Positions 16,452-63,183 of a stretch of DNA of 64,000 bases are shown here, in pieces. The notes below the pieces were generated by a model that searched no databases, was not told where the DNA came from, and saw only the letters and a list, made by a program, of their open reading frames with translations. Numbering within the stretch: the first letter of the stretch is position 1; the number at the start of each line of letters is the position of its first letter. The stretch is from assembly GCA_031411095.1 (NCBI GenBank), contig JANOAK010000009.1, positions 12,999 through 76,998 on the forward strand, written 5' to 3'. Position numbers and translations under genes: made by a program. This DNA comes from Flavobacteriales bacterium. GTDB lineage: Bacteria > Bacteroidota > Bacteroidia > Flavobacteriales_F > PHOS-HE28.

Positions 16452-16775
16452 ATGACATACAAGACTCTCTCTCTCTACGCTAGCGTGATCTTCAGCGCAT
16501 TGATCTGTTCACTGAGCGTGGAGGCACAGCCCTTCATCCCCAGGGATCTGATGAATGAACAGGCCGGAGCTGGTTGGAATTTTGCATCGGCTTCGCACCG
16601 GGTATTCGATGTGGGTGGTACCTATCGGCCGGACGTCAAATACACCAGTGTGGGCACCCTGCCTTCGCTGTATCTGTTCGAAGAGGCCCGGACCGGTTGG
16701 GTAATGCCCATCCTCGACCCGAACAACCCCGGCCAACGATGCCATTCTGCGCCTGGATTGGAGCTTTGTGGGTGA
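16452..16775 (+). CDS. N-terminal fragment (signal peptide + about 80 aa) of SBBP-repeat T9SS protein, separated by frameshift
   Basis: MTYKTLSLYASVIFSALICSLSVEAQ signal peptide; frame terminates at 16775 while downstream frame is open from 16705. Confidence 0.35.
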   Translation: MTYKTLSLYASVIFSALICSLSVEAQPFIPRDLMNEQAGAGWNFASASHRVFDVGGTYRPDVKYTSVGTLPSLYLFEEARTGWVMPILDPNNPGQRCHSAPGLELCG

Positions 16776-19182: not shown

Positions 19183-19188
19183 CTGCGC

Positions 19189-20571: not shown

Positions 20572-20572
20572 A

Positions 20573-27719: not shown

Positions 27720-27726
27720 TCGAACG

Positions 27727-29319: not shown

Positions 29320-29325
29320 AGCTGA

Positions 29326-32558: not shown

Positions 32559-32657
32559 GGGAGCCCTGCTCTGCCGATCAGGATCCAAAGCATCCGCGAA
32601 TACCGAAGCAACGCGCGTGCGATGATCCCCCACCTTGTGCCAACATCCGCCACCACG

Positions 32658-37887: not shown

Positions 37888-38048
37888 TGGACAGCGAATT
37901 AGCTGAGGTTGAACGACCGTAGGTGGCTGTGTGGGACCCCTGCGGCGCAGGATACGCGTCCATCGGGCCGGGTGTCGCGTTCGTCGACCGAACATTTTGG
38001 CCCGTCGTTCAGTATAACGGCACCGGACCTGACCTTCCGACCTGCCTG

Positions 38049-41000
38049 ATGAACACATTCGGACCTGCATTCATGTACGCCCTTCTCAAGCCGAACCACC
38101 CACGATCGCAGCGATGGATCGCAGGCCTTATTGTGCTTTTGATGGGCCAGGTCGACCTTAAGGCGGCACCCGCCCTGGTGCAATCAAATACGGCTGTGAA
38201 TGGTGGGAATTCCTCGTCCATCACGGCCACTTACACTTCCACGCCAACGGCCGGGAACCTGCTGATCGCCATAGTTGGGAACAAGGACGTGCTAACCCTT
38301 GGTGCGCTCCCTGCGGGCTGGACGAAGGGGGTGGCGGACGAGAACAGAAGTCCGGGTCTGGTCATTCTCTACAAGATCGCGGGAGTTGCGGAGCCGTCCG
38401 ATGTCACGATCAATTATTCCGGTTCCACGCGATTGGGCTTGCAGATCTTCGAATACTCAGGTATTCCCGGGGCCACCTTGCGTCAGTTCGTCGAAACCTC
38501 AGGGTCTGGAACATCACTGGCGACGGGCACCGTCACATCGACCACGGCGGATGAGCTGATCATCACGGGCTTCACCATCGATGTTGGCACGACCTTCACG
38601 GGATGGTCCAATTCATTCACCGAGCGCACCGACGTGAACAACGGTGGTGCTCCTGCCTTCGCGGCGAGCTATGCTCTGGCCGATCGCGTGGCGACCGTAC
38701 CGGGCAGTTACCAGACCACGGCAACGGTCGGTAGTTCAGGGGCATGGCTGGGGATGATCGCACGATTTTCCTCCACTCCCAACCAGGCTTGTTTATGGCT
38801 CTCATCCAAGACCAACGCAGCTGTGCCCCCATTGAACGGTGGCATTTCATGGACGGATGGTGAAGTGGTCCAATTGTCCGACCCCAACCTGTCCTTGGTG
38901 GAACCCGGCACATCGAACGGAACATTCAGCACAATAGGGGACATCGACGACCTGGCGGGAGCGAACGAGGACATCGTGGCCATGCATTATGTGACCCGTC
39001 CAGTGACAGTGGGCACCGGGTCCAACGCGATCGCCCTTCAAATAGGCGATGTGCTTTTCTCATTGGCGGATGATGCGACCTTTTCCGGGCTGCTCGTTCA
39101 GAAGGAGGATGTCGCATTGTTCAGGCCCACGGTCCCTGGAAATTATTCAGCAGGTTCTGTGTCCATGTTATTGGACAACATGAATGGAAGGGAGATCAAC
39201 GCGATAGCCGTGGTGGAGCGCGCATGCACGGTGGGAACACAGGCCCTCAATGCCGGGGATGTGCTCGCCTCCTTTTCGGGAGATCCCTTCGACAAGAACA
39301 TCCATCGCTGCGTGATCAGTGCAGCCGGCGCCGGCGTTACCTCCGCAACGGTCACCACATTGCTCGAGGGGAGCGATATGGGTTTCGGAGGGGCGCACAT
39401 CGCGGGTCTATCCCTGGTTTGCGAAACCACTTACATCGGAGGGATCGTGCTGAATCCGGGCGCAGTGCTGCTGTCCCTGGAATCGTCGGATGCCGGTTTA
39501 GGAACGAACAACCTGCCCGTAGACAAATACGACATCTTCGCCCTTAATGTGTCCGTGGCTGAGCCGGGTGTTTCCACCGCAACGGCTATCAGGATCTTCG
39601 AGGGTGCCGATGCAGGGATCTTCTCCGGAGGAGAGGAATTTGATGCGATCAGCCTGGTCACATCGCGCAGCATCACGGGCACGGTGTACGAGGATGTGAA
39701 TTACGGTGGCGGTATTGGCCGCGATCGTTCCACGGCACTGGCCAATGGAGGTACGCGGCGTGCGAATGCCCGGGTGGAACTGTATAATGCCAGCGGGTCC
39801 TTCCTGAGCTTCACCAATACCGACGCAATGGGCCAGTACGAGTTCTCCGCTCTGCCAGCAGGAACATACACGGTGCGTGTGGTGAACAGCACGGTGAGCA
39901 GTGCGCGCGCTGGATATGTCGCGAACACACATCTGGCGGTGCAGACCTATCGCACCAATGCAAGCACAGGCGCGGTTGTCGCTGTCACCGATCGGGTGGG
40001 CGGCGAAGTGCCAGGCAAGGTGGATGCGGGAAACGGTAGTACCACGCTGGCTGCGCTGACCACGGCCTCCACCACTGCTCAGTCGGTGACCACGGTCGCC
40101 GTTGGTGCGACCGAAGTGACCAATGTCGACTTCGGCTACAGCTACAATGTGGTGGTGAACAAGAACGATGCGGGCCAGGGATCTCTGCGGCAGGTGATGA
40201 CGAACATGAACGCGTTGAGCAACGCTGGCTTGGCGATCCAGGGTCGTACGGCAGGTATCGATCATGGTGTCTTCATGCTGGCTGATGGCGTGGCACGTCC
40301 TGGCCTCACGGTGACGTATGCGACCATGTTCGTATCGGGCGCAGCGACCATCGTGCCGCTCACCCCGATGCCCTCGATCACCACACCAATGCTCTTGGAT
40401 GCGACCACACATCCTTTGTTCAGCACGGCTCCTATCATTGAGATCAACGGTACCAGTGCGGGCGCCACCACGGACGGTTTTACGCTGGCGGCGGGCAGTA
40501 CGGGCAGCACGGTCAAGGGCTTCGTGATCAACCGGTTTTTGGGCGATGGTATCCAGGTGAATGCTGGCGGCAACTTAATCCAGGGGAACTACATCGGGGT
40601 GAACGTGGCGGGGACCGCCGCGTCCGCCAATACGCTCACAGGCGTGAACATCGCGGCGTGCGCGAACAACGTGATCGGCGGTACGGCTGCGGGTCATGGC
40701 AATACGATCGCTGGCAATGGCGGAGCGGAGATCTCCATCAGTGGTGCCGCCTCCACGGGCAACCTGGTGCAGGGCAATAACATCGGTACCCGGTATAACG
40801 CGACCTCCGTCATAGCCAGTGCAGGTCAGGGCATCCTCCTGGCCAATACGGCGAGCAACAACAGCATTGGGGGCACCGTGGCCGGTGCCGGCAACGTGAT
40901 CGGGGGCAACGCGCAGGCGGGTATCGAGATCAAGGATGCCGGCACAAGCAACAACACGGTAGCGGGCAACTACATCGGTACGAACGCGAGCGATGCCGGC

Positions 41001-44000
41001 TTGGGCAACACGCTGCAGGGCGTGAAGCTCCAGTTGGGGGCAACGAACAATATGATCGGCGGTACGGTGCCGGGTGCCGGTAACATCATTGCATACAACG
41101 GCGCTCAGGGAGTGGCGCTGTTCTCCTTGACGGACATCGGCAACCGGATCCTCGGGAACTCCATCCATGACAACACCTTGATAGGCATAGACCTGGGCAA
41201 TGATGGTGTCAGTTACAACGACAATGGTGATCCGGACACGGGCCCCAATGGCAGGCAGAACTTCCCTAAGCTTACGAGCGCCACCACCCTTTCGGGCAAC
41301 ACCAGCATCACGGGCACGTTCAACAGCACATCCAACGCTACGTTCCGCATCGAGTATTTCTCGAGCCCGATCGGCGACGGCACGGGGTACGGCGAGGGGA
41401 CAACGTTCCTGGGCACGAATAACATCACGACCAACGCCGGTGGCACGGCCTCCATCAATGTCACGTTCACCGGTGTCACTGTGCCTTCAGGTTATACTGT
41501 ATGCGCCACTGCCACTAACGTCGGCACGAATAACACCAGTGAGTTCTCCGCCTTCGCCGCGGCCCCGACGGACAGCGATAACGATGGGGTCACCGACGAT
41601 GTGGACATCGACGATGACAACGACGGCATCCCCGACGATATCGAGGACCTGGGCTTCGACTCCCGTGGAGGCACGATCGCCTGTACGCAACCGGCGATGG
41701 ACTTCCAAAATCCCGTGTTGGATGCCGGTACAGCGAACACACCGGGGGCCATCTATCGCTTCACGAACGTGCTGCCCGGTATTGATGCACGGCTTTCCAT
41801 CGTGGCCATGAACAACGCCTCCCTAGTGACCGTTGATGATGGTGCGCAAGGCACTCCGGATTCCTGGCAGCCCGTGATCGACTTCACAGGCATCGGCACA
41901 CCAGGCGTCGATTTCAACATGCAGTTCGTTGTCGCTGGTACGACCACACCCCCTGCGACGGTCAGGCGGTTCGGCGGTACGACCTATGATGTGGATGGTG
42001 TGACGGACGTGGAATCATTCCTGTTCACGGCACCCTCTGTATATGCGGTGGATCAACCCACGCTGTTGGCGGCCCAGACCCTGCCGGGCGGCTTGGTGGA
42101 CATCAGTGGTGATGGCACCACGGATGGCGCCGGCATCAGCAGTGATCCACGATACCGGGGCTACTTCCAATATAAGAACACGAACCAGTTCAACTTCCGG
42201 TGTCAATTCAAGCGGACCACGGCGGGCACTACCCAGCGCTACTTAAGCCTGCGTTTCAACGAGTGTTTCCTGAACGACCTCATCAATGTGCAACTGTTCA
42301 TCGTGGATGGCCTGGACACGGATAACGATGGCGTACCGGACTACCTTGATCTGGACAGCGACAACGACGGCATTTACGACGTGGTGGAGGCAGGCTCGGG
42401 CCAGCCGCAGACCAACGGGATATTGAACGGGGGCGTAAGCACTTCGGGCCTGAAGGTCTCCGTGGATGCGAACCTGAACAATGCCATCGACTATACGCTT
42501 CGGGATTCAGATGGTGACAACAATTACGACGGTGTTGAACTGGATTCGGATGGTGACGGCTGTTTTGATGTCACGGAAGCCGGGTTCATCGACCAGAACG
42601 CGGACGGGCGACTGGGCAACGACCCCGTCCTTGTGAACGGAAGGGGGGTCGTCACCTCCGGTTCCGGAGGATACACCACACCTGCTGATGTGAACGCGAA
42701 TTCGGTCTATGACTACCGCGAGGACTCTAGCATCGCCATGAGTTGTCCTGGGAACATCACAGTTACGACCGGAGCGGGCCAGTGCACGGCGAACGTAACG
42801 GTCCCGGCACCACTGGTCACCTCGGCTTGCCGTGGGTATGCCATTGTAAACTCCTTCAATGGTATAAGTGACGCATCCGGTGCCTATCCCATTGGCATAA
42901 CGACGGTGAATTTCATTGTGACCGATGCCACAGGCGGATCCGCGGCCTGCTCGATGACCGTCACCGTGAATGATGTTCAAAGTCCGACCATCAGCTGCCC
43001 TGCCAACGTCAATGTGAACGCTAGCGCTGGACAATGTTCGGCAAGTCCCGTGGCCTTGGGTTCGCCCATCGCCACGTATGGTTGCGATGTGGCCACCATC
43101 ACCAATAACGCCCTTGTGAGCTATCCTGTTGGCACCACTCCCGTTACCTGGACACTGAGCACCGAGGACATTCCCGGTTATCTGGCTCCCGCGCTCATTC
43201 CCTCCTGTGTACCGTCGAATGCATTTCCCGGTCCGGTGAACAGTACCGGCGGTAGCATCACCCTGTCAAGTTCAACGGCCATTTACAACACGGTGGCCAA
43301 CGCGCTTACCACACCCAGCATGAACGGCTCAGCTTCTGCACTCTGCGACGGCATGACCTGTGCCGCCAACGGGGCTACAGCTTCCACATTGACCGTAACT
43401 CCAGGCTTGGGAACCGGTGTTCATGGTGCGTTGAATTTGGGCACCACCATCAGTGCGAACCGGCAGTACACTTCCGTGAACATCCCGAATGATGGACTGC
43501 TCACGGTTAACGGAAACCGCATCATTCGTTGCCAGGGCACGTTCCAGATGGGCACCAACACAACGCTCTCCATCAATGGTGACGTGGTGATCCACGCGAA
43601 TGATTTCAATGCGGACAATGACTTCAACATTAACGTGGTGAGCGGAAGTCTGGTGATCATTTCGGGCAATGACTTCAATGTCGGGAACAGGGCGCGGTTC
43701 ACGGCCCCAACGCCGACCGATCTGCTCGTCCTGTCTGCGGATGACATCTCGATCCAGGTGGATTTCATCGGCAAGGCCATGCTCTATGCAACGGATCGCG
43801 TGCAATTCTGGCCGAACTCCGTTCTGTACGGCGCCATGACCGGCAATAACGTGCAGGTGCTCCCCGATGCCACGGTATTTGGACTCGCATCCGGCTATTA
43901 CTGCCTACCGACCTACCTCGATCCCCCGCAGATCATCAATAACTTCAGTGCTGCTACCAACTCCATCAGTTATCCGGAGAATGCTACGAGCGTTTTGATC

Positions 44001-45233
44001 GACCTTCAGACCGATGACAACCTCAGCAGCGAGGCCAGTGGGTTGACCTATTCGCTCACCGGACCGGATGCTGGCGACTTCGCGATCACCGCGACCACCG
44101 GGGTCCTCAGCTTCGCCGCCACTCCCAACTATGAGGCACCGGCCGATGCCAACCTCGACAACGTATACCAGATAACGGTGACGGTAACGGACATCGATGG
44201 CTTCACGGATGCGCAGGCCTTCACGATCACCGTTACGAACGTGGCCACGCAGACCGGGACTTGCGTCCAGAACATTACGGTCGTGGATGCACAGCCCCCC
44301 ACGATCAGTTGCCCCGCCAACATCACTGTTCCAGCGGCCGCTGGGGCATGCACCGCCACTGTGACGTATGCTGCACCTGTGGGCACGGACAATTGTTCGG
44401 GTTCCACCACGGTGCGGATCGCAGGTCCCGCCAGCGGTAGCGTGTTCCCCCTGGGTACCACCACGATAACGCACCGGGTGACGGACGCAGCGGGCTATAC
44501 CGCGCAGTGTTCCTTCACGGTGACCGTGACCGATACACAGAACCCCACGATCAGCTGCCCGGCGAACATCACGGTGAACGTGGATCCGGGATCGTGCTCG
44601 GCGGTGGTGAACTATGTTGCGCCGGTCGGTACCGACAATTGCTCGGGCGCCACCACGGTGCGCATCGCAGGACCTGCGAGCGGCTCCACATTCGCTCCGG
44701 GTGTTACAACGATCACGCATCGTGTGACCGATGGGGCGGGCAATACGGCCACCTGCAGCTTCACGGTAACGGTGATCGCAGGGAACGATAACGACGCCGA
44801 TGGGCTGTGCGACAATGTGGACCTGGATGATGACAACGACGGATTGCTCGACGTGACGGAAGGGGGTGCAGCGTTGGACACTGACGGTGATGGCGTACCG
44901 AACCGCTTCGACCTGGACAGCGATAACGACGGCATCTACGACTGTGTGGAGTCCGGTTCCGGACAGGCATTCACGGCCGGTGTGTTGAACGGTGGCATCA
45001 CGGCGAATGGCATCCCGGTATCGGTGGATGCGAATGCGAACAACGTGGTGGACTACACGATCCGCGACAGCGATGGGGACGGCACGATCGACAGCTTGGA
45101 ACTGGACGCCGATGCGGACGGTTGCAATGATGTGATCGAAGCCGGATACACCGACGCGAACAGCGATGGTCGACTGGGTCCCGCACCGCTTACGGTGAAC
45201 GCCCGGGGTGTAGTGACATCCGGGGGGCCTTGA
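38049..45233 (+). CDS. Giant modular surface protein 1. Modules: variable head; SdrD-B-like; parallel beta-helix; TSP3-like Ca module A; HYR and cadherin-like domains; TSP3-like C-terminal module B. No T9SS CTD.
   Basis: ORF 37923..45233; signal-peptide-like start at 38049/38073. Motifs: YEDVNYGGGIGRD (SdrD B), [10 protein letters not shown] beta-helix turns, DxDxDG Ca loops, ISCPANITV...[12 protein letters not shown] units. Confidence 0.8.
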   Translation: MNTFGPAFMYALLKPNHPRSQRWIAGLIVLLMGQVDLKAAPALVQSNTAVNGGNSSSITATYTSTPTAGNLLIAIVGNKDVLTLGALPAGWTKGVADENRSPGLVILYKIAGVAEPSDVTINYSGSTRLGLQIFEYSGIPGATLRQFVETSGSGTSLATGTVTSTTADELIITGFTIDVGTTFTGWSNSFTERTDVNNGGAPAFAASYALADRVATVPGSYQTTATVGSSGAWLGMIARFSSTPNQACLWLSSKTNAAVPPLNGGISWTDGEVVQLSDPNLSLVEPGTSNGTFSTIGDIDDLAGANEDIVAMHYVTRPVTVGTGSNAIALQIGDVLFSLADDATFSGLLVQKEDVALFRPTVPGNYSAGSVSMLLDNMNGREINAIAVVERACTVGTQALNAGDVLASFSGDPFDKNIHRCVISAAGAGVTSATVTTLLEGSDMGFGGAHIAGLSLVCETTYIGGIVLNPGAVLLSLESSDAGLGTNNLPVDKYDIFALNVSVAEPGVSTATAIRIFEGADAGIFSGGEEFDAISLVTSRSITGTVYEDVNYGGGIGRDRSTALANGGTRRANARVELYNASGSFLSFTNTDAMGQYEFSALPAGTYTVRVVNSTVSSARAGYVANTHLAVQTYRTNASTGAVVAVTDRVGGEVPGKVDAGNGSTTLAALTTASTTAQSVTTVAVGATEVTNVDFGYSYNVVVNKNDAGQGSLRQVMTNMNALSNAGLAIQGRTAGIDHGVFMLADGVARPGLTVTYATMFVSGAATIVPLTPMPSITTPMLLDATTHPLFSTAPIIEINGTSAGATTDGFTLAAGSTGSTVKGFVINRFLGDGIQVNAGGNLIQGNYIGVNVAGTAASANTLTGVNIAACANNVIGGTAAGHGNTIAGNGGAEISISGAASTGNLVQGNNIGTRYNATSVIASAGQGILLANTASNNSIGGTVAGAGNVIGGNAQAGIEIKDAGTSNNTVAGNYIGTNASDAGLGNTLQGVKLQLGATNNMIGGTVPGAGNIIAYNGAQGVALFSLTDIGNRILGNSIHDNTLIGIDLGNDGVSYNDNGDPDTGPNGRQNFPKLTSATTLSGNTSITGTFNSTSNATFRIEYFSSPIGDGTGYGEGTTFLGTNNITTNAGGTASINVTFTGVTVPSGYTVCATATNVGTNNTSEFSAFAAAPTDSDNDGVTDDVDIDDDNDGIPDDIEDLGFDSRGGTIACTQPAMDFQNPVLDAGTANTPGAIYRFTNVLPGIDARLSIVAMNNASLVTVDDGAQGTPDSWQPVIDFTGIGTPGVDFNMQFVVAGTTTPPATVRRFGGTTYDVDGVTDVESFLFTAPSVYAVDQPTLLAAQTLPGGLVDISGDGTTDGAGISSDPRYRGYFQYKNTNQFNFRCQFKRTTAGTTQRYLSLRFNECFLNDLINVQLFIVDGLDTDNDGVPDYLDLDSDNDGIYDVVEAGSGQPQTNGILNGGVSTSGLKVSVDANLNNAIDYTLRDSDGDNNYDGVELDSDGDGCFDVTEAGFIDQNADGRLGNDPVLVNGRGVVTSGSGGYTTPADVNANSVYDYREDSSIAMSCPGNITVTTGAGQCTANVTVPAPLVTSACRGYAIVNSFNGISDASGAYPIGITTVNFIVTDATGGSAACSMTVTVNDVQSPTISCPANVNVNASAGQCSASPVALGSPIATYGCDVATITNNALVSYPVGTTPVTWTLSTEDIPGYLAPALIPSCVPSNAFPGPVNSTGGSITLSSSTAIYNTVANALTTPSMNGSASALCDGMTCAANGATASTLTVTPGLGTGVHGALNLGTTISANRQYTSVNIPNDGLLTVNGNRIIRCQGTFQMGTNTTLSINGDVVIHANDFNADNDFNINVVSGSLVIISGNDFNVGNRARFTAPTPTDLLVLSADDISIQVDFIGKAMLYATDRVQFWPNSVLYGAMTGNNVQVLPDATVFGLASGYYCLPTYLDPPQIINNFSAATNSISYPENATSVLIDLQTDDNLSSEASGLTYSLTGPDAGDFAITATTGVLSFAATPNYEAPADANLDNVYQITVTVTDIDGFTDAQAFTITVTNVATQTGTCVQNITVVDAQPPTISCPANITVPAAAGACTATVTYAAPVGTDNCSGSTTVRIAGPASGSVFPLGTTTITHRVTDAAGYTAQCSFTVTVTDTQNPTISCPANITVNVDPGSCSAVVNYVAPVGTDNCSGATTVRIAGPASGSTFAPGVTTITHRVTDGAGNTATCSFTVTVIAGNDNDADGLCDNVDLDDDNDGLLDVTEGGAALDTDGDGVPNRFDLDSDNDGIYDCVESGSGQAFTAGVLNGGITANGIPVSVDANANNVVDYTIRDSDGDGTIDSLELDADADGCNDVIEAGYTDANSDGRLGPAPLTVNARGVVTSGGP
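39660..42760. repeat. About 3.1-kb segmental duplication copy 1 (paired with 46860..49960), about 85-90% nt identity
   Basis: e.g. 40141 GCTACAATGTGGTGGTGAACAAGAACGATGCGGGCCAGGG vs 47338 GCTACAACGTGGTGGTGAACAAGAACGATGCGGGCCAGGG; collinear over SdrD-B/beta-helix/TSP3 region. Confidence 0.7.
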
Positions 45234-45518
45234 GCATCAGTTCCTTGCCCGCTCGATCCGAACGCCACAGTCACAAAGGATACTTTACGTCAAACGCTAG
45301 AGCGCCAGACGGTTAGTGGCGATAGGGCATGAATGATGGTCGGGTTGGCGCAGGATGGCCCCCTTGATCCGATCGTCGTTCGGATGGCCAAGAGCCATTC
45401 GTCGGCCGAACCAATTGCCTCGTCGATAGGTACAAGGGTCCGGAACTGACCTCCGACCTACGGTATGTACACCGGCGACCGCATCGTATCCACCTTCAAG
45501 CATGCCCTGCATCATCAC

Positions 45519-51356: not shown

Positions 51357-51559
51357 GTGCTGCGGTTGGTGATCGGTATGCGTTGACCGATGATAGGGCT
51401 GGTGGACCGGCCGGATTGGAACAACCAAGGCCAGGAACATACGTAAGAGCCTATCATATGTCGGGCTCCCCCTTGGCTATTGATATGGCACGAAGCCGGC
51501 GACGCAGCAGCTCACCTGCGTCGCTCCCTATGATTTTGAACAGGGGATCGCCCCTGAAC

Positions 51560-53596: not shown

Positions 53597-53871
53597 ACGT
53601 GATGCCTTCCGGGATCATCCATACACATCTGCCAGAGAACGGGTCAACTGCGCTACCTGCCGAGGAGCGTGCTGGCTACCGCATGGATGGACACCCATCG
53701 GACCAGGACCGGTCACGCGTGGCTGAACGCCCCGGACGGACCCTCTATTTCGATCGCCGGACGACGGCCGCAACCCGACCAGTGGAACCCTCTGGCCGGA
53801 ATACCGTACAAACGGAACGCATGGCGCCATGTAGCTCTCTCAACTCACTGGTAACCAGGCTTGAAGAAACG

Positions 53872-56800
53872 ATGAATTGGAATCGGATCTGTGCTTTCTT
53901 CCTTCGGGGAACTGGTCGTAGGATCATGTCCCCGGGGTCATTTGCTGCCTTGGTCGCGCTGTTTTTCGGCGTGGCCAGTGCGCAGGCACAGAATGGATAT
54001 ACCACGCCGGCGGATGCGAACGGAAACAGCATCTACGACTTTCAGGAGGCCACCACCCTGGCCATTACCTGTCCAGCGAATGTCACCGCGACCAATGCGC
54101 TGAACACATGCGGAGCTGCTGTTGTGGTCCCCGCACCATCCGCTTCAGGATATTGTGGATCATACACGCTGACGAACAGTTTCAACGGCACAGCCAACGC
54201 CTCCGGTACCTACCCTGTGGGTGTCACCACGGTGACATGGACCGCAACCGACCCACGAGGTCAAACGGCGAGCTGTTCCATGACCGTTACGGTAACCGAT
54301 ACACAGCTGCCCGCGATCACCTGCCCGGCGAACATCACGGTAGGCAATGATGCCGGTGTATGCGGTGCCGTGGCGAGCTATGTGGCCCCTGTGGGTTCGG
54401 ATAACTGTCCAGGAGCGACCACCGCGCGCATTGCTGGTCCTGCGTCGGGCAGCCTTTTCCCGAACGGGACGACCACGGTCACCCACCGTGTGACGGACGC
54501 TGCGGGCAACACGGCACAATGCTCCTTTACCGTTACGGTGAATGACACCCAGTTGCCGGTCATCACGTGCCCAGGCAACATTGTGGTGAGCAACGATCCA
54601 GGCGTTTGTGGTGCTACGGTGAGCTATGCCCCGCCGGTAGGCACGGATAATTGCCCGGGTCCGGTCACTGTGCGGACCGCAGGTCTTGCCCCAGGAAGCC
54701 TGTTCCCATTGGGCACGACGACGATCACCTACCGAGTGACTGATGCTGCGGGGAACATTGCACAGTGTTCGTTCACCGTTACCGTGAATGACACACAGGT
54801 CCCCACGATCACATGTCCCGCCAACGTAGCGGCCACCACCAACACCGGCTGCACAGCCACCGGCGTAGCGCTCGGAACACCCACCACCGCCGACAACTGT
54901 GGTGTGGCCACGGTGACCAACAACGCGCCTGCGGCCTTCCCGCTGGGTATCACCACGGTCACATGGACGGTGACGGACAACAGCGGTAACACCGCCACCT
55001 GCGCACAGACGGTGACGGTAACGGACAACGTGAACCCCACGATCACCTGCCCGGCCAACGTTTCCGCCACGACGAACACCGGTTGCACCGCGACGGGTGT
55101 TGCCCTCGGCACGCCGGTGACCAATGACAACTGCGGTGTGGCCTCGGTGACCAACAACGCGCCTGCGGCCTTCCCACTGGGCGTGACCACCGTTACCTGG
55201 ACCGTGACCGACAACAGCGGACGCACGGCGACGTGTACCCAGACCGTAACGGTAACGGACAACGTGAACCCCACGATCACCTGCCCGGCCAACGTTTCCG
55301 CCACGACGAACACCGGTTGCATCGCGACGGGTGTTGCCCTCGGCACGCCGGTGACCAACGACAACTGCGGTGTGGCCTCGCTGACCAACAACGCGCCTGC
55401 GGCCTTCCCGCTGGGCGCGACCACCGTTACCTGGACCGTGACCGACAACAGCGGTCGCACCGCCACCTGCGCACAGACGGTAACGGTGACGGACAACGTG
55501 AATCCCACGATCACCTGCCCGGCCAACGTAGCCGCCACGACCAACACCGGCTGCACCGCCACCGGTGTTGCCCTCGGCACACCGGTGACCAACGACAACT
55601 GCGGCGTGGCCTCGGTGACCAACAACGCGCCTGCGGCCTTCCCGTTGGGCGTGACCACCGTTACCTGGACCGTGACCGACAACAGCGGTCGTACGGCCAC
55701 CTGCGCACAGACGGTGACGGTGACCGACAACGTGAACCCCACGATCACCTGCCCGGCCAACGTTACCGCCACGACGAACACCGGATGCACGGCTACGGGT
55801 GTTGCCCTCGGCACGCCGGTAACCAACGACAACTGCGGTGTGGCCTCGGTGACCAACAACGCGCCTGTGGCCTTCGCGCTGGGCGTGACCACCGTTACCT
55901 GGACCGTGACCGACAACAGCGGCCGCACCGCCACCTGCGCACAGACGGTGACGGTGACGGACAACGTGAATCCCACGATCACCTGCCCGGCCAACGTAGC
56001 CGCCACGACCAACACCGGCTGCACCGCCACCGGTGTTGCCCTCGGCACACCCGTGACCAACGACAACTGCGGCGTGGCCTCGGTGACCAACAACGCGCCT
56101 GCGGCCTTCCCGTTGGGCGTGACCACCGTTACCTGGACCGTGACCGACAACAGCGGTCGTACGGCCACCTGCGCACAGACGGTGACAGTGACCGACAATG
56201 ATGCTCCCATTGCCGTATGCCAACCCGCGACCATTGGTCTGGATGGTTCCGGCATCGCTACGCTGACCGCCGCGGATGTGAACGGCGGCAGCACCGACAA
56301 CTGCAGCATCGCCTCCATAAGCGTGGTGCCGAACACCTTCAACGCCGTAGGCACATACACCGCGACATTGACCGTGACGGATGCGGCAGGCAACAGCAGC
56401 ACCTGTACCGCCACGGTGACGGTGACCGACAGCCAGCCACCAGTGGCCATTTGTCAGAACATCACCATCAACCTGAATGCTGGCGGTACCGTCACCATCA
56501 CTGCTGCGCAGATCGACGGAGGAAGCACGGACAATGGCACGATCACCTCGTTGGTCGCCTCCCAGACGAACTTCGATTGCACCGATCTCGGCCCCAACAA
56601 TGTCACCCTCACCGTTACCGATGATGGCGGCAACACGACGCAGTGCACGGCCGTGGTCACTGTGCAGGACATCATCGCGCCGGCGGCCATTTGCCAGAAC
56701 GCAACGATCTACCTCGACGGTGCCGGAAATGCGAGCATCGCCGCAGCTGATCTGAACAATGGCAGCACGGACAATTGCTCGATCGCCACCATCATCGCAA

Positions 56801-59800
56801 GCAAGAACGACTTCACCTGCGCAGACCTTGGAGCGAACGTGGTCACCGTCACCGTGACCGATCAGAGCGGCAATGGCACCAACTGCAATGCAACGGTGAC
56901 CGTCGTCGATGATATCGACCCGACCATCACATGCCCCGCCACCGTGAATGCCACCACCAATTCGGGTTGCACCGCCACGGGCGTCAACCTCGGAGTGCCG
57001 GTCACGGCCGACAATTGCAGCGTGGCGAGTGTCTCCCACAATGCGCCCGTAGCCTTCCCGATCGGCAGCACCACGGTCACCTGGACGGTGACGGATGGCA
57101 GCGGGAACACGGCCACCTGCACCCAGACGGTGATCGTGACCGATAATGTGCCGCCAACGATCACCTGCCCGGTCAACGTTAGCGCCAACACGAACAGTGG
57201 ATGCACGGCCACCGGGGTGAACCTGGGAACACCTGTCACCAATGACAACTGCGGTGTGGCCACTGTCTCGAACAATGCACCCGCCGCGTTCCCCTTGGGC
57301 AATACGGCAGTGACATGGACCGTGGTCGACAACAGTGGCAATACGTCCACTTGTGTTCAGACCGTGACCGTGGTCGACAATGGCTCGCCTTCGATCAGCT
57401 GTCCGCCCCACGTGAACACCACCACCAACAGTGGCTGTACGGCCACGGGTGTCAATCTCGGCGTGCCCATCACCAGCGATAATTGCAGTGTTCTCAGCGT
57501 GACCAACAACGCACCGGTGGCCTTCCCCTTGGGGACCACCACGGTCATGTGGATCGTGATGGACAACAGTTCCAATGGAGCCACGTGCATGCAGAGCGTA
57601 ACGGTCACGGACAACGTGCCGCCCACGATCACCTGCCCTGCTGCGGTGAACGTGAACACCAACAGTGGTTGCACCGCAACAGGCGTTGCACTAGGCACTC
57701 CGACGACCGCGGATAACTGTGGTGTGGCCAGCGTTACCAACAACGCACCCGCTGTGTTCCCCATCGGCAGCACCACGGTCACCTGGACCGTCACCGACAA
57801 CAGTGGTAACTCATCGAATTGCGCACAGACCGTCAACGTCACGGACATCACACTCCCCACGATCACCTGTCCCGCGAACGTCAGTGTTGGCACCAACAGT
57901 GGCTGCACGGCCACGGGAGTTGCCCTCGGCACGCCGGTGACCAACGATAACTGCGGTGTAGCCTCCGTGACCAACAACGCACCCGCGGCCTTCCCGTTGG
58001 GCGCGACCATCGTCACCTGGACAGTGACCGACAACAGCGGTAACCTGGCCACCTGCACACAGACCGTGACGGTGACCGACAACGTAGCTCCCACGATCGC
58101 CTGCCCACCGACGGTCAACGCCACAACGAACAGCGGTTGTACCGCAACGGGCGTGAACCTCGGCATACCTGTTACGAACGATAACTGCGGCGTTTCGAAT
58201 GTGGTCAATGATGCACCCGCTGCATTCCCGCTCGGCAGTACGACCGTGACCTGGACGGTAACGGACAATGCCGGTAATACGACGAGTTGCACACAAACGG
58301 TCAACGTACTGGACGATGTTCCGCCCGTAGCGGTCTGCCAGGCGGTCACCCTGTTCCTCGATGGCACGGGAAGTGTCGGTCTGGCAGCCAGCGCCGTGGA
58401 TAACGGCAGCAGCGACAACTGCGGCATTGCCAGCCTGAACGTGTCGCCCAATAGCTTCAATGCAGTGGGCACCTACACCGCGACGCTCACCGTGGTGGAC
58501 AATAGTGGCAACAGCAGCACCTGCACGGCCCTTATCACCGTGAATGACCTCGTTCCGCCGGTGGCCGTGTGCCAGCCTGTGACGATCTACCTCGATGGCA
58601 GTGGCAACGCGACGATCGTGGCCGGCGACATCGACGGCGGATCAACCGATAACGACGCCATCGCCAGCCTGGTCGCATCACAAACGAACTTCGATTGCAG
58701 CAATACGGGAGATAACAACGTGACCCTTACCGTAACGGATGACGGTGGCAATACGGCCAGCTGCGTGGCTGTCGTTACGGTGCTGGATACGATCAGGCCG
58801 AGCGTGGTTTGCAACGGCGTAACGGTGTCGCTGAACAACTTCGGCAGTGTGACCATCGATCCGGCGGATGTTGCTATGGCCACCACCGACAACTGTGGGA
58901 GCGGACCGTTGACCTTCAGCACAAGCGACAGCACGTTCATCGCTGTAGGCAGCTACACCGTGTGGGTGTATGTGATCGACGAAGCAGGCAACATCGACAG
59001 CTGCCAGGCAGTGGTTACGGTGAACGACCTGAACCCGCCGGTGGCGATCTGCCAGCCTGCGACGATATACCTGGACGGCAGCGGTAACGCGAGCATCACA
59101 CCGGCGGACATCGACGGTGGCAGCACCGACAACGGCACGATCGTGAGCATCACGGCAAGCCAGACGAACTTCGACTGCACGAACACGGGTGCGAACACGG
59201 TAACGCTGAGCGTAACGGATGACGGTGGCAACACCAGCACCTGCGACGCGGTGGTGACGGTACTGGATACCATCGCACCGGTAGCGGTTTGCCAGAACAT
59301 CACGGTGGCCCTGGACGGCAGCGGCAACGCGAGCATCGTGGCATCGGACATCGACGGAGGTAGCAGCGACAATTGTGCAGGCTTCACGCTGAGCGTGAGC
59401 CAGGCCATCTTCGACTGCAGCATGACCGGCGCGAACACGGTGACCCTGACGGTGACCGATGCCAGCGGTAACGTGAGCACCTGTGATGCCACCGTGACCA
59501 TCGAGGACAACACGATCCCAACGGTGGTGTGCAATGATGTGACGATCAACATGGATACCAACGGCTGGGCGGTGATCAATGCCAGCGCGATGGCCACGGC
59601 CACCACGGACAACTGTGGCGGTGGAACGCTTGAGTATACCACGAGCGTGGACAGCATCAATGTGGTGGGTACGCAGACGGTGTGGGTGTATGTGCAGGAT
59701 GCCAGCGGCAACATCGACAGCTGTTCCGCCACGGTCACCGTTACGGACCTGAACCCGCCGACGGCGATCTGCCAGGCTGCGACGATCTACCTCGACGGAA

Positions 59801-62800
59801 GCGGCGGCGCGAGCATCGTGGCGGCCGACATCAACGGAGGCAGCACGGACAACGGCACGATCGTGAGCATCACGGCGAGCCAGACGAACTTCGACTGCAC
59901 GAACACGGGTGCCAATGGTGTATGGCTTTACGTAACCGACGATGGCGGCAATATCGACAGCTGCCAAGCCACGGTGACGGTGCTCGACACGATCGCCCCT
60001 GTGGCGGTGTGCCAGAACATCACAGTGGCGCTCGATGGCAGCGGCAACGCCAACATCACGGCGAACGACATCGACGGTGGCAGCGGCGACAACTGCGCAG
60101 GCTTCACGCTCAGCGCGAGCCAGACGAACTTCGACTGCAGCATGACCGGGGCGAACACGGTGACCCTGACGGTGACCGATGCCAGCGGTAACGTGAGCAC
60201 CTGTGATGCCACCGTGACCATCGAGGACAACACGATCCCCACGGTGGTGTGCAACAGCGCCACGATCAACATCGGTCTGAACGGATGGGCGGTGATCAAC
60301 GCCGACGCGCTGGCCACGGCCTCGAGCGATAACTGCGGCAACGCTGCGCTGGACATCTTCACGGTGGTGGACAGCATCAACGTGGTGGGTGACAGCACCA
60401 TCTGGGTGTACGTGCAGGATGCGGCCGGCAACATCGACAGCTGCCAAGCCACGGTGACCATCACCGACCTGAACCCGCCAACGGCGATCTGCCAGCCTGT
60501 GACGATCCACCTGGACGGCAGCGGTAACGCGAGCATCACACCGGCCGACATCGATGGTGGCAGCACGGACAACGGCACGATCGTGAGCATCACGGCGAGC
60601 CAGACGGCCTTCGACTGCACGAACACGGGTGCCAATGGTGTATGGCTTTACGTAACCGACGATGGCGGCAACATCGACAGCTGCCAGGCCACGGTGACAG
60701 TGCTGGACACCATTGCGCCGAACGTTTCCTGCCAGGACTTCACGGTCTACCTTGACGCGAGCGGGGTGGCCCAGGTCCAGGACAGCGACATCATTGTGGG
60801 CACGGCTGACAATTGCAGCCCCTTGGTATCCACCGTGAGCGCCAGCCAGTTCACGAACATTGGAACATACCCGGTGACGGTCACCATCACCGACCCCAGC
60901 GGTAACAGCTCCAGCTGCTCATCCATCATCACGGTGCTGGACACCATTGTACCGCAGGTGAATTGCCTCGCCTTCACAGGAGTTGTTCTGCACCTGGACA
61001 GCAACGGTCAAGCGGTGCTCGATCCGGCCCAACTGGATGGCGGCAGCAGCGACAACGATACGATCGTCGCGCTCACCGCATCGCAGGTCCAGTTCGATTG
61101 CGGTGATATCGGCAACAACAGCGTCACGCTGTACGCGACGGATGCAGCAGGCAACGTGGATAGCTGCTTCGCAGTGGTCACCGTGCTCGACACCATCGCG
61201 CCCTCGGTCATTTGCCAGAACATCACGATAGCCTTGGACGGCAGCGGCAACGCGACCATCTCCAGCGCACAATTGGATAATGGCAGTTCGGATAACTGTA
61301 CGCTGGCATCCACCTCGGCAAGCCAGACGACCTTCGACTGCAGCGCTGTGGGTGTGAACGTGGTGACCCTTACAGCGATCGACGCAAGCGGCAACACAAG
61401 CAGCTGCAATGCCCTGGTAACGGTCATTGACACGATCATGCCGGTAGCGGTGTGCAACAACATCACCATTTACCTCGATGGCAGCGGCGTGGCCACGATC
61501 ACCGGACAGGACATCGACGGTGGATCCACGGACAATTGCGGTACGCTCACCTACACGGCAAGCCAGACCAGCTTCGATAGCGTGGGCGTATACACGGTGA
61601 TCCTCACGGTGACGGACGGCAGCGGTAACAGCAGCAGCTGCACGGCTACGGTGACGGTGAATGATATCGTCGCCCCGGAAGCGAACTGCCAGGCTGCGAC
61701 CATCTATCTCGACGGCAACGGCAATGCGAGCATTACGCCGGCCGACATCGATGGTGGAAGCACGGACAACGGCACGATCGTTGGCATCACCGCCAGCCAG
61801 ACCGCCTTTACCTGCAATGATCTGGGCATCAACGATGTGATCCTCACGGTCACCGATGATGGAGGTAACAACGACAGCTGCATCGCGGTGGTCACGGTGC
61901 TCGACACCATCGCACCGGTAGCGGTGTGCAACAACATCACCATCTACCTCGATGGCAGCGGTGTGGCCATCATCACCGGGCAGGACATCGACGGCGGTAG
62001 CACCGACAATTGCGGCATGCTCACCTACTCGGTCAGCGACACGAGTTTCGACAACGTGGGTACCTATACCGTGACCCTCACCGTGACCGATGGCAGCGGC
62101 AACAGCAGCACATGCACCGCGACCGTCACCGTGAACGATGTCAGCCTGCCCACGGCGAACTGCCAGCCAGCGACGATCTACCTCGATGCCAGCGGCAATG
62201 CCAGCATCACCGCCGCTGACATCGACGGCGGCAGCACGGATAACAGCGTGATCGTGGCTTTGGTCGCCTCGCAGACCGCTTTCGATTGTGGCGATCTGGG
62301 CGCTAACGATGTGATCCTCACCGTCACCGATGATAGCGGGAACAGCGACAGTTGCATCGCCGTGGTCACTGTGCTCGATACCATTGCACCGAACGTGGTG
62401 TGCAACAACATCACCATCTACCTCGACGGCAATGGCAACGTGGAGATCATCGGCGAGGACATCGATGGTGGTTCCACCGACAACTGTGGCACGCTGAGCT
62501 ACTCGGCGAGCACGACGATCTTCACGGCACCCGGTACGTATCAGGTAACGCTTATCGTAACGGATGCCAGCGGCAACAGCAGCAGCTGTACAGCAACGGT
62601 GGAGGTCCTGGTGGTCAACCTGCCTCCGGTGGCCGTGGATGACAGCATCTCCACGAGCGAAGGCGAAGCGGTGGTGATCGGCAACGAGGCCAACGATAGC
62701 GATCCGAACAACGATCCCTTCAGCACCACGGATGCGTCCGCCGGTGTGGGCAGCGTGGAGATCAACGGTGATGGTACGCTGACCTATACACCAGCAACGG

Positions 62801-63171
62801 GATGGTGTGGGACCGATACGGTCACCTACACCATCTGCGACAGTCTTGGACTTTGCGATGCCGCGATCATTCTGGTCACCGTCGTGTGCGATAACGACCT
62901 GGTGATCCCGCATGGCTTCTCGCCCAACGGTGATGGCATCTCGGATACGTGGGTGATCCAGGGCCTGGAGAACTATCCCGACAATTCCGTGAAGCTCTTC
63001 AACCGCTGGGGTGCGGAGATCTATGATGCGGCTCCGTATGGCAACGATTGGGATGGACGTAGCACCGCACCGATGACCATCAATGGTCAATTGCCTGCCG
63101 GCACCTACTTCTTCATCCTCGACCTGGGCAATGGAACGGTGGAGACCGGCGACCTGTACCTCAGTAACTAA
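53872..63171 (+). CDS. Giant SprB-like adhesin. It has dozens of HYR and Ig-like 80-86-aa repeats and a T9SS type B C-terminal domain.
   Basis: ORF 53599..63171; signal-peptide start at 53872 (MNWN...) or 53926 (MSPGSFAALVALFFGVASAQA); C-terminal PHGFSPNGDGISDTWVIQGL...FNRWGAEIYD type B CTD; PorP/SprF gene follows. Confidence 0.85.
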   Translation: MNWNRICAFFLRGTGRRIMSPGSFAALVALFFGVASAQAQNGYTTPADANGNSIYDFQEATTLAITCPANVTATNALNTCGAAVVVPAPSASGYCGSYTLTNSFNGTANASGTYPVGVTTVTWTATDPRGQTASCSMTVTVTDTQLPAITCPANITVGNDAGVCGAVASYVAPVGSDNCPGATTARIAGPASGSLFPNGTTTVTHRVTDAAGNTAQCSFTVTVNDTQLPVITCPGNIVVSNDPGVCGATVSYAPPVGTDNCPGPVTVRTAGLAPGSLFPLGTTTITYRVTDAAGNIAQCSFTVTVNDTQVPTITCPANVAATTNTGCTATGVALGTPTTADNCGVATVTNNAPAAFPLGITTVTWTVTDNSGNTATCAQTVTVTDNVNPTITCPANVSATTNTGCTATGVALGTPVTNDNCGVASVTNNAPAAFPLGVTTVTWTVTDNSGRTATCTQTVTVTDNVNPTITCPANVSATTNTGCIATGVALGTPVTNDNCGVASLTNNAPAAFPLGATTVTWTVTDNSGRTATCAQTVTVTDNVNPTITCPANVAATTNTGCTATGVALGTPVTNDNCGVASVTNNAPAAFPLGVTTVTWTVTDNSGRTATCAQTVTVTDNVNPTITCPANVTATTNTGCTATGVALGTPVTNDNCGVASVTNNAPVAFALGVTTVTWTVTDNSGRTATCAQTVTVTDNVNPTITCPANVAATTNTGCTATGVALGTPVTNDNCGVASVTNNAPAAFPLGVTTVTWTVTDNSGRTATCAQTVTVTDNDAPIAVCQPATIGLDGSGIATLTAADVNGGSTDNCSIASISVVPNTFNAVGTYTATLTVTDAAGNSSTCTATVTVTDSQPPVAICQNITINLNAGGTVTITAAQIDGGSTDNGTITSLVASQTNFDCTDLGPNNVTLTVTDDGGNTTQCTAVVTVQDIIAPAAICQNATIYLDGAGNASIAAADLNNGSTDNCSIATIIASKNDFTCADLGANVVTVTVTDQSGNGTNCNATVTVVDDIDPTITCPATVNATTNSGCTATGVNLGVPVTADNCSVASVSHNAPVAFPIGSTTVTWTVTDGSGNTATCTQTVIVTDNVPPTITCPVNVSANTNSGCTATGVNLGTPVTNDNCGVATVSNNAPAAFPLGNTAVTWTVVDNSGNTSTCVQTVTVVDNGSPSISCPPHVNTTTNSGCTATGVNLGVPITSDNCSVLSVTNNAPVAFPLGTTTVMWIVMDNSSNGATCMQSVTVTDNVPPTITCPAAVNVNTNSGCTATGVALGTPTTADNCGVASVTNNAPAVFPIGSTTVTWTVTDNSGNSSNCAQTVNVTDITLPTITCPANVSVGTNSGCTATGVALGTPVTNDNCGVASVTNNAPAAFPLGATIVTWTVTDNSGNLATCTQTVTVTDNVAPTIACPPTVNATTNSGCTATGVNLGIPVTNDNCGVSNVVNDAPAAFPLGSTTVTWTVTDNAGNTTSCTQTVNVLDDVPPVAVCQAVTLFLDGTGSVGLAASAVDNGSSDNCGIASLNVSPNSFNAVGTYTATLTVVDNSGNSSTCTALITVNDLVPPVAVCQPVTIYLDGSGNATIVAGDIDGGSTDNDAIASLVASQTNFDCSNTGDNNVTLTVTDDGGNTASCVAVVTVLDTIRPSVVCNGVTVSLNNFGSVTIDPADVAMATTDNCGSGPLTFSTSDSTFIAVGSYTVWVYVIDEAGNIDSCQAVVTVNDLNPPVAICQPATIYLDGSGNASITPADIDGGSTDNGTIVSITASQTNFDCTNTGANTVTLSVTDDGGNTSTCDAVVTVLDTIAPVAVCQNITVALDGSGNASIVASDIDGGSSDNCAGFTLSVSQAIFDCSMTGANTVTLTVTDASGNVSTCDATVTIEDNTIPTVVCNDVTINMDTNGWAVINASAMATATTDNCGGGTLEYTTSVDSINVVGTQTVWVYVQDASGNIDSCSATVTVTDLNPPTAICQAATIYLDGSGGASIVAADINGGSTDNGTIVSITASQTNFDCTNTGANGVWLYVTDDGGNIDSCQATVTVLDTIAPVAVCQNITVALDGSGNANITANDIDGGSGDNCAGFTLSASQTNFDCSMTGANTVTLTVTDASGNVSTCDATVTIEDNTIPTVVCNSATINIGLNGWAVINADALATASSDNCGNAALDIFTVVDSINVVGDSTIWVYVQDAAGNIDSCQATVTITDLNPPTAICQPVTIHLDGSGNASITPADIDGGSTDNGTIVSITASQTAFDCTNTGANGVWLYVTDDGGNIDSCQATVTVLDTIAPNVSCQDFTVYLDASGVAQVQDSDIIVGTADNCSPLVSTVSASQFTNIGTYPVTVTITDPSGNSSSCSSIITVLDTIVPQVNCLAFTGVVLHLDSNGQAVLDPAQLDGGSSDNDTIVALTASQVQFDCGDIGNNSVTLYATDAAGNVDSCFAVVTVLDTIAPSVICQNITIALDGSGNATISSAQLDNGSSDNCTLASTSASQTTFDCSAVGVNVVTLTAIDASGNTSSCNALVTVIDTIMPVAVCNNITIYLDGSGVATITGQDIDGGSTDNCGTLTYTASQTSFDSVGVYTVILTVTDGSGNSSSCTATVTVNDIVAPEANCQAATIYLDGNGNASITPADIDGGSTDNGTIVGITASQTAFTCNDLGINDVILTVTDDGGNNDSCIAVVTVLDTIAPVAVCNNITIYLDGSGVAIITGQDIDGGSTDNCGMLTYSVSDTSFDNVGTYTVTLTVTDGSGNSSTCTATVTVNDVSLPTANCQPATIYLDASGNASITAADIDGGSTDNSVIVALVASQTAFDCGDLGANDVILTVTDDSGNSDSCIAVVTVLDTIAPNVVCNNITIYLDGNGNVEIIGEDIDGGSTDNCGTLSYSASTTIFTAPGTYQVTLIVTDASGNSSSCTATVEVLVVNLPPVAVDDSISTSEGEAVVIGNEANDSDPNNDPFSTTDASAGVGSVEINGDGTLTYTPATGWCGTDTVTYTICDSLGLCDAAIILVTVVCDNDLVIPHGFSPNGDGISDTWVIQGLENYPDNSVKLFNRWGAEIYDAAPYGNDWDGRSTAPMTINGQLPAGTYFFILDLGNGTVETGDLYLSN
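54786..56225. repeat. Tandem array of six near-identical 240-bp (80-aa HYR) repeat units
   Basis: Units TITCPANV(S/A)ATTNTGCTATGVALGTPVTNDNCGVASVTNNAPAAFPLGVTTVTWTVTDNSGRTATCAQTVTVTDNVNP recur with over 90% nt identity every 240 bp. Confidence 0.8.
59029..60720. repeat. Higher-order tandem repeat: about 720-bp super-unit (three 80-86-aa Ig/HYR-like modules) in about 2.3 near-identical copies
   Basis: GACCTGAACCCGCC(G/A)(G/A)(T/C)GGCGATCTGCCAG recurs at 59029, 59749, 60469. Confidence 0.7.
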
Positions 63172-63183
63172 GTGGGCAAGCAC

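Follow-up and report, generated by a model that had tools for sequence, protein, structure and literature searches.

A gene fission conserved beside a type B T9SS cargo gene in uncultured Flavobacteriales and a possible docking pair derived from it

Gene layout and the divided module

The DNA analyzed here, referred to as the window, comprises 64,000 nucleotides (nt) of contig JANOAK010000009.1 (positions 12,999 to 76,998 of the forward strand; GenBank assembly GCA_031411095.1) from an uncultured member of the Flavobacteriales with a GC content of about 60%. The TrpRS it encodes shares 84 to 86% identity with proteins from Flavobacteriales metagenome-assembled genomes. According to the list of open reading frames (ORFs) of the window, the region from 37.9 to 63.2 kb is occupied by four genes, all on the plus strand and separated by spacers of about 200 to 390 nt, whose products we call P1 to P4. 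At this locus, gene fission cut a composite unit exactly between its two parts, an Asp-rich module ending in VTSG and a G-Y-T-x-P element with a D-x-N-x-N-x-x-Y-D-x-x-E loop. The upstream part became the C terminus of proteins that lack a type IX secretion system (T9SS) C-terminal domain (CTD), here called heads, which have since multiplied and diversified with unrelated domains. The downstream part became the mature N terminus of P4, a giant HYR-repeat protein, or stalk, that has the sole type B CTD of the four and is adjoined by a PorP/SprF-family gene.

P1 is encoded by the ORF from 37923 to 45233, with a likely ATG at 38073 (N terminus MYALLKPNHPRSQRWIAGLIVLLMG), giving a head protein of about 2386 amino acids (aa; 38073 to 45233). 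Searches against Pfam and NCBIfam assigned SdrD_B/CarboxypepD_reg-like, HYR, and cadherin-like domains to it, in addition to an internal module with the junction and a terminal module. P2 (45519 to 51356; about 1945 aa, with an upstream ATG at 45465 also possible, ORF 45465 to 51356) is a head protein with HYR, HYR_4C, and SdrD_B/CarboxypepD_reg-like domains. It is a paralogue of P1, matching it at 63% on the aa level over about 1460 residues, and the cores of the two genes match at 74.5% on the nt level over 3.35 kb. P3 (ORF 51353 to 53596; likely start at 51560, thus 51560 to 53596) is a head of about 678 aa with DUF3344-like and DUF7933 domains and a signal-peptide-like N terminus, with QTS following the putative cleavage site.

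The ORF of P4 extends from 53599 to 63171, with a likely start at 53872 or 53926. From the latter, the putative signal peptide (MSPGSFAALVALFFGVASAQA, followed by Q) occupies 53926 to 53988, and the mature N-terminal peptide, the same element that comes after the module in fused copies, occupies 53989 to 54048. The stalk proper (54049 to 62904) consists of a HYR_4C-type domain and about 17 HYR and other Ig-like repeats with a Big_9/cadherin-like region near the end; Pfam recognized 17 HYR stretches, Big_9, cadherin-like, PKD_4, and others. The type B CTD (CHU_C/TIGR04131) and the stop codon follow at 62905 to 63171, and the PorP/SprF-family outer membrane protein gene, also on the plus strand, starts at 63184 and is cut by the window end at 64000. 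Between 54801 and 56198, P4 contains tandem 234-nt units (78-aa HYR) that are 86 to 92% alike at the nt level, versus 65 to 77% in the rest of the HYR array, which suggests recent amplification; the region is prone to assembly collapse. Antisense ORFs of up to 1083 aa overlap P4 on the minus strand (54160 to 57411, 60919 to 63783, and others); in all likelihood they are not genes but arise from the high GC content and the repetitive use of codons.

The Asp-rich module, of which there are five copies among P1 to P3, is about 120 to 135 aa long and is formed by a run of DxDxDGxxDxxE/D loops. Five or six DxDxDGxxDxxD-type Ca loops can be read directly in each copy, and the module of about 120 aa has its own conserved loop order, a conserved Cys, and a terminal hairpin. 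The internal copy of P1 (42306 to 42665, aa 1462 to 1581; 166 bits with the module hidden Markov model) ends in NGRGVVTSG. It leads, with the module/junction motif NGRGVVTSGSGGYTTPADVNANSVYDYRE at aa 1577 to 1600, into the junction peptide GYTTPADVNANSVYDYRE (42669 to 42722), whose D-x-N-x-N-x-x-Y-D-x-x-E loop is EF-hand-like. The internal copy of P2 (49500 to 49862, aa 1346 to 1466) is likewise followed by a junction peptide (49863 to 49916, motif at aa 1467). Both internal copies run in frame into GYTTPADxNxNxxYDxxE, a HYR_4C-type domain (PF23237 in P2), and HYR repeats. The other three copies are terminal, each closing its protein directly before the stop codon: in P1 at 44799 to 45230, including a D-rich lead-in and ending in RGVVTSGGP; in P2 at 50922 to 51353, ending in LVTSLTP; and in P3 at 53162 to 53593, ending in VVTSGNN. 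P4 has its junction-type motif GVASAQAQNGYTTPADANGNSIYDFQE at aa 131, and the mature protein starts with QNGYTTPADANGNSIYDFQE straight after an A-x-A/Q cleavage site (the slash marks the cut).

The motifs are located where the original prediction had placed them, with GYTTPAD after the internal modules of P1 and P2, a P3 that ends at the module, and a P4 that starts with the junction peptide. That prediction had noticed a terminal module in P3 only. P1 and P2 end in it as well, so the picture is one of several heads with a common C-terminal module and one stalk, not one split pair. The further suggestion that P1 and P2 are mosaics of P3-like and P4-like parts did not hold, the resemblance to P3 being confined to the shared module.

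The similarity across module and junction is collinear and far beyond chance. In BLASTP comparisons, aa 1346 to 1466 of P2 matched aa 627 to 747 of P3 (64%, E = 7e-44), and aa 1466 to 1962 of P2 matched aa 132 to 596 of P4 (53%, E = 1.5e-137), the second match abutting the first without a gap. For P1, aa 1462 to 1581 matched aa 627 to 746 of P3 (66%, E = 5e-45). The junction is exact as well as collinear. P3 and P4 together are, as had been proposed, a split form of the unit that is contiguous in P1 and P2; 66 further loci of Bacteroidota contain about 90 copies of the module with the same continuity. The terminal modules are the best-conserved portion of P1 to P3; they are 78 to 83% alike among themselves at the nt level, versus 66 to 68% to the internal copies. 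Programmed frameshifting or read-through that would join P3 to P4 was rejected, as the frames differ and a spacer of about 390 nt and a new signal peptide lie between them. A scan of the four spacers for sigma-70 promoters and terminators and for the Bacteroidetes TAnnTTTG pattern gave nothing above chance, and an Rfam scan of 37 to 64 kb gave no match.

Export by the T9SS is understood to need a CTD on every cargo protein, those of type B being held by a PorP/SprF protein of their own. As had been predicted, P4 alone has a type B CTD with a PorP/SprF partner. Its CTD scored 84.2 bits with CHU_C (PF13585; cutoff, 27) and 51.4 bits with TIGR04131 (cutoff, 35), and the gene directly downstream scored 255 bits with PF11751. 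The other half of this claim, that P1 to P3 have signal-peptide-like N termini and no recognizable CTD, agrees with our inspection and searches. By inspection, all four N termini show a basic n-region, a hydrophobic core, and a small-x-small/Q site. Neither a type A nor a type B CTD was found at the C termini of P1 to P3 with Pfam and NCBIfam, and the P3 tail gave no CHU_C or Por_Secre_tail match at E ≤ 10. The only Por_Secre_tail match in P1 to P3 is internal in P1 and below threshold (21.3 bits; cutoff, 23). P1 to P3 are nevertheless kept as intact long ORFs beside the type B CTD/PorP pair. Gln is the typical first residue of mature signal peptidase I substrates in Bacteroidota (PMC5837995). 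The sites of all four proteins fit this Q-rule, and the A-x-A/Q context of P4-type proteins is kept in all seven loci that have the split arrangement.

Conservation of the split and turnover of the heads

The same split arrangement was present in six further metagenome loci, L001, L084, L085, L086, L087, and L159. L001 is an ENA contig with about 78 to 82% nt identity to the window. L084, L085 (GC content, 63%), and L159 were found via the proteins P0005, P0234, and P0368, respectively, and L086 and L087 were found by a scan with the P4 N terminus. Generic HYR fragments dominated the homologues retrieved with the N-terminal region of P4, P0234 being the sole informative match. Each related locus has one to three genes whose products end in VTSG(GP/NN/GL) or VTSLTP, followed by a spacer of 250 to 600 nt. 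The downstream gene encodes a signal peptide that ends in A, with Q as the next residue, and a mature N terminus of the form QNGYT[TI]P.D..GN..YDFQE, and it runs via HYR repeats to CHU_C where the contig extends far enough. Across the seven loci, every gene that encodes a signal peptide followed by QNGYT[TI]P (7 of 7) has a module-terminal gene immediately upstream on the same strand, and all 13 module-terminal genes lie upstream of such a P4-type gene.

The heads vary widely, from beta-helix/SdrD_B/HYR to DUF3344/DUF7933, LTD with fn3 and GBD_T9SS_assoc, NIDO with HYR, and lectin-like forms, and several have no Pfam match. Their terminal modules fall into two clades, one from the window and L001 (76 to 92% identical) and one from L084, L086, L087, and P0003 (65 to 90%). 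Between the clades, identity is 53 to 62%, indicating that the cut is old. The split arrangement is conserved and under purifying selection; the ratio of nonsynonymous to synonymous substitution rates (dN/dS) between the window and L001 was 0.32 for the P3 head; the module gave 0.09 to 0.19, and the start of P4 gave 0.11. The seven loci probably belong to one lineage, with GC contents of 56 to 63%.

The stop of P3 and the start of P4 might in principle stem from a sequencing or assembly error or from a giant gene decaying into a pseudogene, and the contigs of L001 and L085 are indeed visibly frameshifted in the manner of long-read assemblies. However, the stop, the spacer, and the new A-x-A/Q signal peptide recur in seven independent assemblies, the frames of P3 and P4 differ, and dN/dS is below 1 on both sides. 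Such an origin is therefore highly improbable and effectively refuted. The P3-P4 spacer (53597 to 53925, with no strand assigned; L001 10340 to 10720) aligns to L001 inside one continuous high-scoring segment pair at 77.8% nt. Both this spacer and the P2-P3 spacer match L001 about as well as the adjoining coding sequence does. L001 also contains, right after the P4-like fragments, a Ty1/copia-type gene with gag_pre-integrase and RVT_2 domains (17690 to 20339, minus strand) on an otherwise bacterial contig, which could be a chimeric assembly or eukaryote-derived DNA.

Gene content upstream of the junction changes between relatives. L001 has an extra module-terminal gene of 1709 aa between its P2-like and P3-like genes. 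The 5' end and body of the window P2 gene are collinear with gene 1 of L001, and its 3' end is collinear with the extra gene and all that follows it; P2 looks recombinant relative to L001. The P3 module is 91% identical to the module of L001 gene 1, which is not its orthologue, versus 77% to that of its positional orthologue, a pattern suggestive of gene conversion between the tails of the tandem genes. The last of the head genes is another one in L159, three other heads are present in L087, and the gene sets of L159 and L160 differ again.

These observations, together with the closely similar HYR units of P4, would also fit a rapidly recombining cassette array for adhesin variation, whose module and HYR repeats would mainly be substrates for recombination and whose P3/P4 boundary would be one transient outcome of it. 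We consider this quite improbable as an account of the locus. The boundary is identical in all seven loci although the modules have diverged as far as the between-clade values given above, and recombination would account for the turnover of the heads but not for the conserved cut or the P4 N-terminal peptide. We saw neither inverted repeats nor an invertase nor silent cassettes. The original prediction of a cassette-style locus with module exchange thus stands in part: relatives differ in their genes and in the terminal modules, but the fission junction is fixed.

The module elsewhere and the tip peptide of P4

A profile of the module, scanned against one genome per species, identified 79 loci, mostly in Flavobacteriia, Saprospiraceae, and Cytophagales, with a few in cyanobacteria and gammaproteobacteria and one in a myxobacterium. 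Of the module copies in the 66 Bacteroidota loci among them, 92 extend to the last part of the profile. None of the 92 stands at the C terminus of its protein, and Y-x-x-P/T follows within a few residues in 89 (GY in 78, GY..P in 70). In the other phyla, the Y-x-x-P element follows only 1 of 22 copies. The module is thus normally covalent with a Y-x-x-P/T element in Bacteroidota, and the P3/P4 boundary cuts inside a conserved composite unit. Short database proteins carry the uninterrupted string NG.VTSG.DGYT.P.D.D.NG..D..E, at times tandemly repeated. The module with the GYTTP.D loop also forms 174-aa tandem arrays, with 17 copies in one Tenacibaculum ORF (L076, 5456 to 20329).

In a search of the whole library, 5044 representative clusters matched the module, some of them giant proteins with up to 73 matching stretches. 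The module stood at the very C terminus in only 3 of the 150 top representative proteins. All three are from this lineage and are relatives of P1/P2 at 70 to 75% identity or have another head. A 189-aa ORF ending in KVTSDGL, P0021, occurs in a Patiriisocius metagenome-assembled genome with 37% GC (L081 to L083, for example, L083 at 9860 to 10570). It has no signal peptide, its frame continues that of an N-terminal FAD-oxidoreductase fragment, and it is conserved between selO and the gene for an Rrf2 regulator in at least 17 contigs. A chimeric remnant is the best reading of it, the alternative being an odd cytoplasmic protein. With these features, it was dropped as a genuine stand-alone counterexample.

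The terminal module might itself be a new export or anchoring signal, such as a third T9SS C-terminal signal or a tag for PorP/SprF or another outer membrane component, by which P1 to P3 would be secreted independently of the P4 N terminus. In the 13 genes of the seven split loci, the module is strictly C-terminal and highly conserved, with a type B CTD/PorP pair next to it in every case, and P1 to P3 have no other recognizable CTD. Nearly everywhere else it is internal, however, as the counts above show. It gave no CHU_C or Por_Secre_tail match even under the relaxed threshold, and it is modeled as a coil-rich Ca-loop structure, whereas structurally analyzed T9SS CTDs reportedly have a compact beta-sandwich fold. 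We regard an export signal as improbable.

The module shares DxDxDGxxDxxD/E loops, a coil-rich predicted structure, and likely Ca binding with TSP3 and bacterial TSP3 repeats (PF02412 and PF18884), but it lies below the Pfam threshold, with 16.7 bits for TSP_3 and 7.8 bits for TSP3_bac (cutoff, 25). When module and peptide were searched against a copy of Pfam at E ≤ 10, no model exceeded its threshold; the matches were sub-threshold ones to TSP_3, TSP3_bac, and the Binary_toxB Ca loop, with no dockerin, EF-hand, or CTD model among them. The module sequence had no match among PDB chains at E ≤ 1.

The other side of the cut is unusually well conserved. Mature residues 1 to 20 of the P4-type proteins have a mean identity of 88% across the seven loci, versus 61% for the next 90 residues, which form the HYR_4C-type domain; the signal-peptide sequences are not conserved. 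AlphaFold2 models of the first 202 mature residues of P4 contain two Ig-like domains with predicted local distance difference test (pLDDT) values of 90 to 98. Residues 1 to 20 reached pLDDT values of 53 and 62 in P4 alone, with no secondary structure, versus 84, 83, and 71 for the corresponding segment in the fused stretch of P1 (aa 1455 to 1691), where it is continuous with a module at 83 to 90, a contrast confounded by alignment depth (about 4 rows over the peptide in P4 alone versus about 20 in the fused form). The domain downstream in the fused model is poorly modeled because of a shallow alignment. These differences are consistent with a peptide conformation that depends on the module, and the tip peptide of P4 is predicted, from its conservation and the models, to behave like a binding motif.

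The reading that we favor, tentatively and as somewhat short of probable, is that an old gene fission has been kept as a docking pair, in which the terminal module of a CTD-less head attaches to the tip peptide of a stalk anchored through the T9SS. After Sec export, the N-terminal peptide of P4, exposed and otherwise disordered, would be bound by the C-terminal module of a head, with Ca probably required, and docking would restore between separate chains the unit that P1 and P2 carry internally in fused form. For P4, what is known of type B CTDs predicts export via the T9SS, after which the PorP/SprF partner would keep it at the cell surface. The head, once docked, would come to lie at the distal tip of the HYR stalk, either drawn through the T9SS behind the P4 N terminus or docked after separate export. 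A head-to-tail complex of this kind would have the topology of one long polypeptide, so that a single CTD could in principle serve both partners. With several heads in competition for a single tip peptide, the tips of the adhesin would be interchangeable. The boldest form of this reading, a trans-assembled T9SS adhesin of a kind not described before, with Ca-dependent modules that clip swappable heads onto the stalk peptide by hitchhiking or by docking outside, is rather unlikely in our estimation. Covalent rejoining of an intein-like or sortase-like kind was rejected, as no intein or nucleophile motif is present and the Gln of mature P4 is likely pyroglutamate under the Q-rule and therefore blocked.

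Several points weigh against the docking pair. The seven split loci probably descend from a single fission event, so the co-occurrence of heads and stalk is phylogenetically nonindependent and may partly be inherited synteny. The fused internal copies within P1 and P2 show that both states are tolerated in the lineage. One P4 N terminus holds only one head, which leaves the stoichiometry with three or more heads unexplained. The AlphaFold2 output for module and peptide consists of pLDDT values without contacts, to which the uneven alignment depth noted above is added, and fold searches with the module gave no informative match. In a literature search, we found no precedent for T9SS hitchhiking of a CTD-less partner and no paper on CTD-less partners docking onto a T9SS adhesin. 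P0021, the only partnerless terminal module of known context, counts weakly on the same side. In the fused P1 model, the last beta-hairpin (PVLV-NGRG-VVTS) lies wholly upstream of and directly before the cut. The tip peptide is thus not simply the missing strand of the hairpin, and the module may be complete without GYTTP.

The position of this hairpin would fit a fission without continued contact, in which the cut fell at a tolerated interdomain linker, the module is autonomous, and P1 to P3 are independent exported proteins. The module could then act, for example, by Ca-dependent binding to the cell's own lipopolysaccharide or glycans, by binding to a substrate, or by self-association, and the P4 peptide would be a Ca loop with a role of its own. 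Module-type repeats in thousands of proteins, the copies in other phyla that mostly lack Y-x-x-P, the partnerless P0021, and a synteny possibly inherited from one ancestral event all agree with such autonomy. It would, however, leave unexplained why a peptide predicted to be disordered is conserved above the folded domain behind it, why Y-x-x-P/T is near-obligatory after the Bacteroidota module, and by what route CTD-less giant proteins reach the surface; P0021, for its part, is weakened as support by its missing signal peptide and its in-frame oxidoreductase fragment. An autonomous module is possible but, on balance, doubtful.

Other gene sets and comparison with known systems

Elsewhere in the window, three tandem genes at 16768 to 21964 each encode a type A T9SS sorting domain (Por_Secre_tail), and their GC content is 0.53 to 0.56 versus about 0.61 elsewhere; this region of lower GC may be an acquired island. 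At 32622 to 36596, a 1324-aa protein with Sortilin/VPS10 and PKD domains and no CTD match ends in a duplicated segment of about 35 aa (KYTGGGNDRDPILVxVGSTVPTNV). At 23709 to 30324 lies a second, independent type B set, in which a CHU_C protein of 1336 aa with 12 PKD domains is accompanied by a PD40-repeat protein and a full-length PorP/SprF gene. This set is without module-terminal genes, indicating that the split arrangement is specific to the HYR locus.

In the sprC-sprD-sprB-sprF operon of Flavobacterium johnsoniae, CTD-less accessory genes likewise lie upstream of a type B adhesin gene and its PorP/SprF gene on one strand. We know of no report that SprC or SprD shares a module that is fused to the adhesin N terminus in other genomes. 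Like the adhesins of described type B CTD and PorP/SprF pairs, such as SprB/SprF and others of F. johnsoniae (PMC9143113, PMC12618676), P4 is giant and repetitive; it has a putative Sec signal peptide and a type B CTD, and the PorP/SprF gene lies directly downstream. Type B CTD proteins need, and remain bound to, their cognate PorP/SprF-like protein (PMC9143113, PMC12618676), and the T9SS transports folded proteins (PMC9251779). P4 and its PorP/SprF protein are an ordinary member of this class of cargo and shuttle. For the conserved free N-terminal stalk peptide and the one to three upstream CTD-less genes sharing a C-terminal module, to which that peptide is covalently joined elsewhere, in contrast, we found no described counterpart among type B pairs. 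The SprB repeat (PF13573) was absent from the Pfam results for P4, which is made of HYR repeats and is therefore not a SprB orthologue. The predicted multicomponent SprB-like adhesin system remains plausible as a multicomponent system, and the comparative data strengthen it, but P4 is not a homologue of SprB.

Dockerin-cohesin systems are alike in that unrelated heads share one C-terminal Ca-loop module (about 70 to 130 aa) and an anchored scaffold is encoded nearby. This is an analogy of organization only: dockerin (PF00404) gave no match to the P3 tail or the module even at E ≤ 10, and no cohesin family was among the Pfam matches of P4. Here, the proposed receptor is a 20-residue N-terminal peptide with one site per stalk, and the route is the T9SS of a diderm. 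Gene fusion or fission pairs of the Rosetta-stone type are an established predictor of interaction in comparative genomics. The present locus fits that pattern in that two neighboring genes match successive stretches of what is a single polypeptide in paralogues and in many other genomes; it differs in that the cut lies inside a small conserved unit and not between large domains, and one side has since multiplied.

The module defined here is very widespread in Bacteroidota (more than 5000 representative protein clusters) and has a near-obligatory Y-x-x-P cap. At this locus, large conserved CTD-less proteins are fixed beside a type B CTD/PorP pair, and their tail matches the free N-terminal peptide of the stalk. 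If tail and peptide do not bind, the locus would still be a clean, dated example of gene fission with expansion of one half. If they do bind, this would be the first noncovalent multisubunit T9SS adhesin assembly, possibly with piggyback export. The 20-residue peptide and the module of about 130 residues would then offer a simple experimental handle on this docking, which would explain how one anchoring and secretion apparatus can present several binding heads.

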